Shown one piece after another: positions 1 through 1,653 of a stretch of DNA of 1,653 bases. Made by a program: the position numbers and the translations under genes. Source of the DNA: Naegleria gruberi (Eukaryota). The notes under the pieces are model-generated. The model was not told where the DNA came from. It saw only the letters and a list, made by a program, of their open reading frames with translations, and ran no database searches. Within the stretch, counting starts at the first letter, position 1; each line of letters starts with the position of its first letter. The DNA lies in NCBI GenBank assembly GCA_000004985.1, contig GG739356.1. The stretch is one strand, 5' to 3'.

Positions 1-386
1 CCTACATCAAGTGGTTGATATAAGTGACTCAAGTGTGGTGGAATGGACATAACAATAATATTATTTTGCTTGGCATATTCCAACACATCAGAATCACAGT
101 GAGTGGAATGATTATCGTACAATAATAATACTGGTCTACTTGAAGGTATGTGTTCAATAAAGTTCTTCTTCATCCAACTCAAAAAGCAATTTGTTGTAAT
201 AAATCCATTCTCAGTAGCAAATACCGTTGCTTTACTATCCAAATCACTGAACATATCATCTGATACGGATTTTCCTTTATAAATAAATAGAGGAGGAACA
301 TATGATCCTGCAGCATTTCCACAAACAAGTATTGAACATGTTTCTCTAGATGAAGAAGTTACCATAGATGGATGACTTCCTTTTTT
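1..386 (-). CDS. Transposase segment 3: DDE_1 catalytic core (partial), with the second and third catalytic Asp.
   Basis: This frame is offset -1 from segment 2 and is open from the stop at 413-411 to the window start. Translation is ..KKGSHPSMVTSSSRETCSILVCGNAAGSYVPPLFIYKGKSVSDDMFSDLDSKATVFATENGFITTNCFLSWMKKNFIEHIPSSRPVLLLYDNHSTHCDSDVLEYAKQNNIIVMSIPPHLSHLYQPLDV. 'CgNAaG...PP.fIyKGK', 'llLyDNhstH' and 'P.hlSH.lQPLDv' are the conserved pogo DDE_1 blocks. The D-to-D spacing is 36 residues. Confidence 0.85.
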
Positions 387-838
387 TTGGCAAGAGTGTA
401 TCCTGTAGTTTCATTCCTTTGGATTCCTGTTTCATCACAATTATAGATATGGTCAGGCATTAAGTTATTCTTTTTAATTTCCTTCTCTAATTGATCAAAG
501 AATAATTCTACGACTTGGGAATTTTCACTGTCACTTCTAACTTGTTCAAGCCTTTCTGCTTCTCTAACAGCAATATCATGATTCCTACTTCTGAAGTCTT
601 GATACCATCCATCAGAGAGATCTTTTGGTTTATTGTACTTGCACTCATACATCTTGTTGGCTTTGTTAATCACATCATATTCATTGACAGGTAAATTATT
701 ATCATTCCTTTCAAATATCCACTCCTTTAATTCATCCTCTTCCTCTTTAGTAAAGTAGGTCTTTCTACCAGCATGTGAATTAATTGATGATCTTCCATTT
801 ACTAGATCATTAAAAGTTGTATCTGAATGTCGAATTTT
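359..838 (-). CDS. Transposase segment 2: Tc5/CENP-B-type HTH and start of the DDE_1 domain, including the first catalytic Asp.
   Basis: This frame is offset -1 from segment 1 and is open from 874. Translation is ..DTTFNDLVNGRSSINSHAGRKTYFTKEEEDELKEWIFERNDNNLPVNEYDVINKANKMYECKYNKPKDLSDGWYQDFRSRNHDIAVREAERLEQ...FFDQLEKEIKKNNLMPDHIYNCDETGIQRNETTGYTLAKKKEVIHLW*. 'LT.eEe..L..WI...g.pv....i..kA', 'fkaS.GW...F..Rh.i' and 'IyNcDETG' are canonical pogo/Tigger motifs. D1 codon at 436-434. The ORF track entry 359-673 is the Met-initiated tail of this segment. Confidence 0.85.
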   Translation of the reverse strand, partial: KIRHSDTTFNDLVNGRSSINSHAGRKTYFTKEEEDELKEWIFERNDNNLPVNEYDVINKANKMYECKYNKPKDLSDGWYQDFRSRNHDIAVREAERLEQVRSDSENSQVVELFFDQLEKEIKKNNLMPDHIYNCDETGIQRNETTGYTLAKKKEVIHLW

Positions 839-966
839 TTGGCTACGCTTCTGATGGATGCACCATTTGTGGTATTATAATATTCTAATGCTTTCTCTCT
901 CTTCTCCTCCTCTTCCTGTTGCTGTTGTTCATGTTCCTGCTTTTTTGTTAATTTCTTCTTAACCAT
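826..966 (-). CDS. Transposase segment 1: N-terminus with psq-type helix-turn-helix.
   Basis: ATG at 966-964 in context catcATGg (A at -3, G at +4), with no upstream in-frame ATG (TAA at 1005-1003). Translation is MVKKKLTKKQEHEQQQQEEEEKREKALEYYNTTNGASIRSVAKKFDI. The 'ALEYY..NGASIRSVAKKFDI' stretch fits the psq/CENP-B N-terminal HTH consensus (..g.s.r.vA..fgIp.sTL). The frame then hits TAG at 804-802. Confidence 0.65.
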
Positions 967-1029
967 GATGATGAAGGTGATCGGGATTATATTTTTTTCA
1001 TATTAAACATGGTTGTAAACTTTGGTAAT

Positions 1030-1050
1030 TTTATTGCAAAACAATTTATT
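1030..1050 (-). promoter_or_regulatory. Two AATAAA hexamers (minus strand, at 1050-1045 and 1035-1030) lie 55-75 nt downstream of the CobW-like stop codon. They are candidate polyadenylation signals for that gene.
   Basis: Plus-strand TTTATT occurs at 1045-1050 and 1030-1035. Position relative to the TAA at 1107-1105 is appropriate for a eukaryotic poly(A) signal. AT-rich background makes chance occurrence fairly likely. Confidence 0.3.
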
Positions 1051-1104
1051 CACCAAAACAAACAAACGATACGGGTAGAGAAGACCCACACTACTACATA
1101 TACA

Positions 1105-1653
1105 TTATAAAAACTTTGAAAGTTTACTATTAAAATTGTTCAAGATGATCGAAAATCGAGGGTGATCGGAATTGAAATATTTTGCCCTAGTTTGAGTTTT
1201 GAAAGGATTCTTCATAATTGACCACTTTTTAAACAATTCTTCCACATTCTCACCTGGTAACACCTCATCCTTTACCAAACACTTATCAAGAATTTCTTCT
1301 ATCGCCTTCTGGTCAAGATTTTGACCAATGAAAACAATTTCCTGTCGTCTGTCACCAAAAATTCCTTCAAATTTGAATTTCTTTTCAAATGTTTCAATTT
1401 CCTCTTTGGTAAACCTTTTAGATTTCTCTTCTTCTGATAAAGATGCTAACCAATAAGCTTTTGGTTGATAAGAAAATGAAGTTCCAGCAGTTGACCATTC
1501 ATAGATTAGTTTAGAATCGGTTGCCAACCAGAAGAAACCTTTCGATCTCAAAATTCCTTTGAAACTATCCTGCAATATTGTGGAGAATAATAATTCTGGA
1601 TTGAATGGTAATCTTCTTTGATATACAAATGAGGAAATTCCATATTCGGTTGT
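1105..1653 (-). CDS. COG0523/CobW-family GTPase (ZNG1/CBWD-like zinc metallochaperone), C-terminal portion. The CDS is 5'-partial and continues beyond the window end. Stop codon TAA at 1107-1105.
   Basis: Extending the 1105-1575 ORF to the window edge keeps the minus-strand frame open and gives TTEYGISSFVYQRRLPFNPELLFSTILQDSFKGILRSKGFFWLATDSKLIYEWSTAGTSF...WLASLSEEEKSKRF...FGDRRQEIVFIGQNLDQKAIEEILDKCL. The 'ygISSFVy.arRPFhP' linker, 'lRsKGffWla' and 'rr..lVfIGr.LD....l...l..CL' are the hallmark motifs of the CobW C-terminal domain. The ORF track's initial M at 1575 is a TTG codon inside this longer frame, not a true start. Confidence 0.8.
   Translation of the reverse strand, partial: TTEYGISSFVYQRRLPFNPELLFSTILQDSFKGILRSKGFFWLATDSKLIYEWSTAGTSFSYQPKAYWLASLSEEEKSKRFTKEEIETFEKKFKFEGIFGDRRQEIVFIGQNLDQKAIEEILDKCLVKDEVLPGENVEELFKKWSIMKNPFKTQTRAKYFNSDHPRFSIILNNFNSKLSKFL

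Follow-up and report, generated by a model that had tools for sequence, protein, structure and literature searches.

The window analysed here, the whole stretch of 1653 nucleotides (nt; 33% GC) from contig GG739356.1 of Naegleria gruberi, carries on its minus strand the 3' part of a CobW/COG0523-type gene joined to part of a DNA transposon of the pogo superfamily. It is very probable that the transposon inserted within the last codons of the CobW gene, in the same orientation, and that it now supplies the tail and the stop codon of the CobW reading frame. Positions 1-1187 would correspond to the 5' 57% of a cut-and-paste element of ~2.1 kb, from the branch of the superfamily that contains Fot1 and in which 35 residues separate the second catalytic aspartate from the third (DD35D). 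Integration would have occurred at the TA dinucleotide 1188-1189, inside the last few CobW codons. The CobW frame would then run for 81 nt into the terminal inverted repeat and leader of the element to end at a transposon TAA, with the native CobW C-terminal tail and 3' untranslated region now lying past the element's other end, beyond the window. A preliminary description of this DNA had placed the transposon immediately downstream of the gene, beginning less than 140 bp after its stop codon. That boundary has to be moved, since the insertion TA lies inside the frame, 80 nt before the stop.

Translated directly, the minus strand is open for 182 codons between position 1653 and a TAA codon at 1107-1105. 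Its first 126 residues (~1638-1275) match the Pfam domain CobW_C (PF07683, E 7.9e-23), in agreement with the COG0523/CobW gene recognized in the preliminary description on the same strand as the transposon. This part of the window has 790 homologs, many of which combine the cobW GTPase domain PF02492 with PF07683. The closest homolog, P0007 (cobW + CobW_C), is 51% identical and its tblastn alignment is confined to positions 1653-1195. The N-terminal GTPase domain of the window protein, with the CxCC metal motif, lies beyond position 1653; a GCICC motif is present at locus L001, home of the closest homolog. The native 3' part of the gene spans 1190-1653 (155 codons, last residues ...KNPFKTQT) and is followed in frame by a segment (1105-1188) that consists of 27 codons, RAKYFNSDHPRFSIILNNFNSKLSKFL, and the TAA stop.

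The origin of this last segment is revealed by independent copies of the element, whose contigs were fetched and whose termini were compared with the window. In L006, L005 and L002/L003 the regions upstream of the transposase ATG match the part of the window that seemed intergenic and the match runs past the CobW stop codon. Six termini of relatives, of which four are 5' ends and two are 3' ends in reverse complement, align from position 1187, and their upstream flanks are unrelated. In L006, L002/L003 and L005, and likewise at the 3' ends of L002 and L004 once reverse-complemented, similarity opens at TA|GGGCAAAA; every aligned terminus begins with TA|GGG. A blastn comparison of the whole window with L006 aligns positions 193-1189 at 66.7% identity and ends exactly at the TA. 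This dinucleotide (1188-1189), presumably one copy of the target-site duplication, adjoins the visible end of the window element and is found on both sides of relatives L002 and L056. Its T completes a Thr codon as third base and its A opens the next codon of CobW. The junction in the CobW frame therefore reads ...AAA ACT CAA AC[T A]GG GCA AAA..., the insertion falling within a codon pair, and the frame continues in the foreign RAKYFNSDHPRF... tail.

A transposon situated wholly downstream of an intact CobW gene, with its end within 967-1104 and with the native CobW stop and C-terminus preserved, would agree with a frame that is uninterrupted down to the TAA and with the 138 nt separating this codon from the ATG, a distance that had been given correctly. 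Such an arrangement is nevertheless very improbable. Homology to the independent copies does not stop at 1104 but reaches 1189, at a TA|GGG terminus common to six ends, while the CobW homolog alignment ends at 1195. Twelve CobW homologs terminate 3-19 residues past a conserved (D/N)PF motif. The window protein has 31 residues after NPF, more than any of the 12, and the junction is found four residues past NPF. The frame equivalent to the CobW tail in L006 is open for just 21 unrelated codons, showing that the tail is accidental and not a conserved coding region. The C-terminal 27 residues of CobW and its stop codon thus appear to be transposon sequence. As judged from these alignments, the element has replaced a short and variable native tail, leaving the CobW_C domain intact, and the earlier suspicion that the native 3' end of the gene had been displaced was well founded. 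A protein with this chimeric tail would be produced if the truncated gene is expressed.

The junction could also be an artefact of assembly joining two unrelated loci, the window resembling a short metagenome-type contig and transposons being repeats where assemblers fail. This is improbable because the join lies exactly at the element terminus beside a TA, as in a true insertion, while mis-joins normally occur inside a repeat and not at its last base. The GC content is moreover identical on either side (33.2% in the transposon part and 33.2% in the CobW part).

The 5' non-coding end of the element (967-1187, minus strand; 221 nt, 30% GC) consists of the terminal inverted repeat and a leader. 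The repeat, GGGCAAAATATTTCAATTCCGATCACCC, occupies 1160-1187, a length derived from the relatives, and the distance from its start to the ATG is 221 nt in L006 as well. A search for a matching pair of inverted repeats within the window returned chance-level pairs only, as the second end of the element is outside the window. The repeat contains the motif TCCGATCAC (1162-1170, minus strand), which also occurs in L006, within the 5' repeat, and in L004, inverted, within the 3' repeat. A second direct copy, CCCGATCAC, is located at 977-985 of the same strand; it precedes the ATG by 11 nt and is 185 nt away from the first copy. The same pair with the same 185-nt spacing occurs in L006, and L005 has a variant of the motif. 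The layout of L056 is analogous, a different motif, TTGGGTCA, occurring both within the repeat and immediately ahead of the ATG. Some Tc1/mariner elements have repeated binding sites in their ends, and by analogy TCCGATCAC is a candidate transposase binding site. Alternatively, TCCGATCAC and CCCGATCAC may be part of a promoter.

The leader features two further arrangements around the chimeric CobW stop. A pair of AATAAA hexamers (1050-1045 and 1035-1030, minus strand), 55-77 nt beyond this stop, might provide polyadenylation signals for the truncated CobW gene; neither hexamer is conserved in L006. An imperfect inverted repeat of 18 nt (1015-1032 / 1110-1127, 78% complementary) brackets the stop region and is probably due to chance in AT-rich sequence.

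Transposase coding starts on the minus strand at ATG 966-964, the position proposed in the preliminary description. It fits the starts of homologs P0001 and P0004, and both L005 and L006 conserve the context of this ATG, TCATCATCATGG. The protein is of the pogo (CENP-B) type, as had been recognized. HTH_Tnp_Tc5 (PF03221, E 8.5e-9, ~748-566) and DDE_1 (PF03184, E 9.9e-17, 61.5 bits for a cut-off of 22, 344-3) are detected with Pfam, the latter match being the similarity on which the call had been made to depend. A family profile, made by combining the window protein with its relatives, matches the DNA-binding domain of human CENP-B (PDB access code 1HLV, residues 11-130, E 1.8e-5). With these matches and that of CobW_C, the core of the preliminary description holds and lies far above chance. 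The complete N-terminal architecture announced earlier is upheld for Tc5 and DDE_1, both above threshold, but the psq helix-turn-helix is sub-threshold and two frameshifts had been overlooked.

The codons of the three catalytic aspartates are found at 436-434 (IYNCDETG), 116-114 (LLLYDNHS) and 8-6 (QPLDV). The IYNCDE motif is invariant in the family alignment and the triad is intact. The second and third aspartates are spaced by 35 residues, which amends the DD36D signature previously given to DD35D by the usual convention. A poly-Q/poly-E insert, unusual for the family, had also been described at 945-895. The Q/E-rich stretch QEHEQQQQEEEEKREK is at 939-892 of the minus strand, within a K/Q/E-rich leader that has 25 residues before the first helix in the window, P0001 and P0004 alike. 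This charged leader is K/R/E-rich in all three and aligns with no gap; the Q/E-rich segment varies in composition and has not been inserted.

Alignment with intact homologs by tblastn distributes the transposase over three frames of the minus strand: -1 (891-826), -3 (871-383) and -2 (398-3). The first segment (826-966, frame -1, within an open reading frame, ORF, at 802-966) codes for Met1-Ile47, comprising the leader and the start of the psq-like helix-turn-helix; the psq-like region (~897-791) spans the first frameshift. At this site (821-826) the window has five bases, CAGAT, for two codons in the motif F-x-I-P-x-T-T of P0001, P0004 and P0002, one base being missing, and the abandoned frame ends at TAG 804-802. 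The second segment (383-820, frame -3) codes for HTH_Tnp_Tc5, the linker and the first catalytic Asp. It ends at an A8 run (381-388), where the window reads LAKKK/EVI... and the homologs LAKKGSHPS; A9, or six A, would restore the frame, and the abandoned frame ends at 361-359. The third segment (3-386, frame -2) codes for the DDE_1 core with the second and third aspartates. The window does not reach the remainder of the protein, its C-terminal 40-45%, or the element's 3' end.

After each frameshift the old frame reaches a stop within ~seven codons. An autonomous copy would have an uninterrupted reading frame; here the frame is broken by two 1-nt deletions, and as sequenced the copy cannot make transposase. 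A programmed -1 frameshift at A AAA AAA G was considered and dismissed since the intact homologs are single-frame at both sites; short introns at the frame changes were dismissed as well, the homologs having no residues there that the window lacks.

It is possible, albeit rather unlikely, that the copy is intact and autonomous and that both frameshifts are errors of sequencing or assembly. Both losses concern a single base, one of them in the A8 run, and there is otherwise not a single stop in 322 codons of sequence with 33% GC; open stretches of at least 128 codons were found in just 4 of 5000 shuffled sequences. A reading of ATTCCAGAT at the first site or of A9 at the second would point to an intact transposase. 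The first site, however, reads ATTCAGAT and has no homopolymer. The L004 copy, which comes from another sample, also carries a frameshift and an in-frame stop, decay being normal in this family. Either the copy is young and recently damaged or it was hit by two sequencing errors.

A search among 5.8 billion proteins identified about eight close relatives of the transposase (38-63% identity), all from environmental assemblies. Full-length transposases among them have 569-607 amino acids. Two complete elements are available. L002 (398-2470, 2073 bp) has 28-nt repeats that read GGGCAAAATTATGGAA(C/T)TCCGA... at both ends, and L056 (1646-3775, 2130 bp) has 29-nt repeats; TA flanks both sides of each. 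P0127, P0128 and P0005, from loci L056, L059 and L004, share a C-terminal Cys-rich segment (e.g. GIFCTCRSACMTNHKCVCKSGGRCCSEDCSCHGRC) after a Lys/Glu-rich linker. No Pfam match to this segment was found by scanning P0005 or in the precomputed lists of P0127 and P0128; we take it to resemble CXC-type zinc modules. In the L004 copy (~1-330) the frame is shifted close to the psq-like region and also holds a stop codon (EQI*KK, compared to EQIRKN in P0004). Defective copies are common in the family.

The family was also searched for beyond this protein set. A scan of JGI metagenomes with the family profile yielded 48 loci, all of them distant pogo-like sequences (23-40% identity) and none from the window family. 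IMG/VR viral contigs contained neither a relative of the transposase nor the repeat pattern, and a viral origin was dropped on this ground. Bacterial and archaeal copies were rejected as well: the 18-base repeat pattern has five exact matches in 596 Gb, where ~17 are expected by chance, and none is window-like by blastn. No RNA family of Rfam is found in the window.

The relatives also bear on whether the window encodes a host gene domesticated from a pogo transposase. Repeated domestication of pogo transposases, e.g. CENP-B, the TIGD genes and POGZ (PMC7386202), provides precedents. This explanation is barely credible for the window, which has a terminal inverted repeat and a TA, a broken reading frame and a DDD triad that is intact, not degenerate. 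Its relatives have both repeats and TA duplications and occupy unrelated loci, so that the element is to be regarded as a transposon, as the preliminary description had it.

Two of these relatives are inserted at coding sequences. The L056 element interrupts a Sel1-repeat reading frame; the upstream frame enters the terminal repeat by 12 nt and then stops. Excision of L056 in silico leaves a Sel1-repeat frame that is smooth across a single TA, the upstream repeats being in another frame. This frame difference suggests an intron or a further lesion nearby. In L002 (395-400 and 2468-2473) the element lies within the TA of the TAA stop codon of a minus-strand frame, and a TAG stop arises anew from this TA and the initial G of the repeat. 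At the reconstructed empty site the next reading frame follows directly after the stop (TAAATG), which implies a very compact host genome.

Interrupted reading frames at two of the three insertions with readable flanks (the window and L056) raise the question of whether CobW stays functionally intact through removal of the element ahead of expression, either as an intron or as a germline-limited sequence bounded by TA, of the kind found in ciliates. Pogo-type elements are indeed internally eliminated sequences in Blepharisma (PMC9942856). Removal of the window element is nonetheless highly unlikely. The element ends have no GT...AG and no reassigned stop codon is present in any reading frame. 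The related contig L001 has an ordinary GT-AG intron of 35 nt, and the Blepharisma element Bogo differs in its repeat and in its TAA duplication. Germline DNA is, furthermore, rarely assembled from bulk samples.

The L001 intron (3397-3431, GTAAGT...ACTGACACGTTCAG) splits the GCICC metal-binding motif of a gene in which the closest CobW homolog is fused to TPR repeats; an ASXH-domain gene is found at the same locus. A branch-site-like motif lies close to its 3' splice site and presumably recalls metamonad introns. The flanking genes on related contigs code for ASXH, AAA, TPR and Sel1 domains only. The hosts of these contigs appear to be gene-dense eukaryotes with short introns, the only direct evidence for their eukaryotic nature being the L001 intron.

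Insertion of a pogo-superfamily element in the last CobW codons is the reading that best accommodates the data, but several observations weigh against it or its details. A single end of the window copy is visible, the second repeat, second TA and displaced CobW tail being beyond the window, and the closest copy found has only ~67% nucleotide identity. The HTH_psq match does not reach threshold (E 0.0018, 18.4 bits for a gathering score of 20.4), although it is weak but consistent in three family members, including P0004 and P0001 (E 0.002-0.013). The two frameshifts could be sequencing errors, given the A8 homopolymer at one of them and the otherwise stop-free frame. The family placement, finally, comes from a neighbor-joining tree of ~150 residues that has no labelled Lemi or Mover references.

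Under the insertion reading, the CENP-B-type bipartite helix-turn-helix and the DDE_1 core of an intact relative would bind the inverted repeats. The likely target is the TCCGATCAC motif, which is found in both repeats and again immediately ahead of the ATG. Excision of the element by the enzyme and its reinsertion at TA sites would follow. The window copy, with its two 1-nt deletions, would be mobile only by means of transposase produced from another copy. A wider proposal, which we consider doubtful, is that the family represents an undescribed protist clade of Fot-like pogo elements defined by the GGGCA... repeat, the extra motif copy before the ATG and a CXC-type Cys domain. Its members would habitually insert at TA in or at the ends of coding sequences of very compact genomes, host frames being terminated anew by TA plus the repeat G or by nearby transposon stops; insertions would for this reason be tolerated and give rise to chimeric C-termini, that of the window CobW protein being one of them.

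The main value of the analysis is a correction: boundaries between a gene and a transposon cannot be read from reading frames alone. It also defines the termini of a rare pogo-superfamily lineage, which could therefore be included in the repeat libraries used for protist genomes and metagenomes, and it offers a minor case of a metallochaperone-type GTPase whose tail was rewritten by a transposon. The current understanding of transposons and of COG0523 proteins is unchanged, the case being one of ordinary transposon biology.

The relationship to known families was assessed with bootstrapped neighbor-joining trees of ~150 residues of the DDE core from 22-25 sequences, with references from Dupeyron et al. 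2020 (PMC7325037, supplementary files 5 and 13). The superfamily has 29-59 residues between the last two aspartates of the triad (PMC7386202), and the window displays its characteristic features, namely DDE_1, the D-D-D triad, a CENP-B-type DNA-binding region and a terminal inverted repeat. The window and five relatives are monophyletic (90-99% bootstrap). A clade with 77-89% support unites them with Fot1, Flipper, FOTYL, Cirt1 and some unnamed elements with DD35D from animals and Phytophthora, apart from the Tigger, pogoR and pogo clade (100%) and from Tc2_FR5. Fot and Fot-like elements are described as DD35D with HTH_psq plus HTH_Tnp_Tc5 (Gao et al. 2020), a description that fits the DD35D spacing, clear Tc5 and weak psq of the window. 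"Fot-like branch" of the pogo superfamily is thus the best supported label, without being settled. In the Pogo/Tigger-like assignment of the preliminary description the superfamily stands; the Tigger part is too specific and probably wrong, the DDE core grouping with Fot1-type DD35D elements in the phylogeny.

Tigger, pogo and pogoR, among which are the lineages that gave rise to CENP-B, the TIGD genes and JRK, have in common with the window DDE_1, HTH_Tnp_Tc5, a CENP-B-like DNA-binding domain and the TA target. They differ by DD29-33D spacing in the references, by the motifs D-N-x-x-x-H and P-P-N-x-T-S-x-x-Q-P-x-D-Q-G and by an identity of 22-29%. In the comparison aimed at placement within Tigger, identity with the Tigger, pogoR and pogo references is 22-24%, and the tree puts the DDE core outside their clade. 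Passer/Tc2-type elements share with the window family DD35D, HTH_Tnp_Tc5, the TA duplication and repeats of 25-37 nt. These repeats start with CCGTA, CTGTA or CCGTC, unlike those of the window family, and Tc2_FR5 falls outside the clade formed by Fot and the window; one labelled reference represents the Passer type in this comparison.

Bogo, from the Blepharisma germline, is likewise a DD35D member of the superfamily with DDE_1 and HTH_Tnp_Tc5, found in an AT-rich protist (PMC9942856). Its repeat, CTCCCCCC...CGTGAGCGAACAAAA, matches none of the characterized Tc2, Fot or Pogo terminal inverted repeat signatures, its duplication is TAA/TTA and it was placed near Tc2 (PMC9942856). The window family has instead a GGGCAAAAT... 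repeat and a TA duplication, and groups away from Tc2_FR5.

Fot1, Flipper, FOTYL and Cirt1, with which the window family groups, have DD35D, the motifs D-(G/N)-H-x-S-H and P-(P/A)-H-x-S-H-L-x-Q-P-L-D-V-G-x-F, an N-terminus with psq and Tc5 and the TA duplication, all as in the window family. Identity to this group in the DDE core is just 28-33%. The repeat of the window family starts with GGGCA, a sequence that has no match among the known-family termini in the accessible portion of Table S1 of Gao et al. Unlike the Fot1 group, the full-length relatives of the window element have the C-terminal Cys-rich CXC-like tail, and their hosts are apparently uncultured AT-rich eukaryotes. The window family is not nested among fungal Fot elements but branches beside the unnamed DD35D elements of animals and oomycetes.

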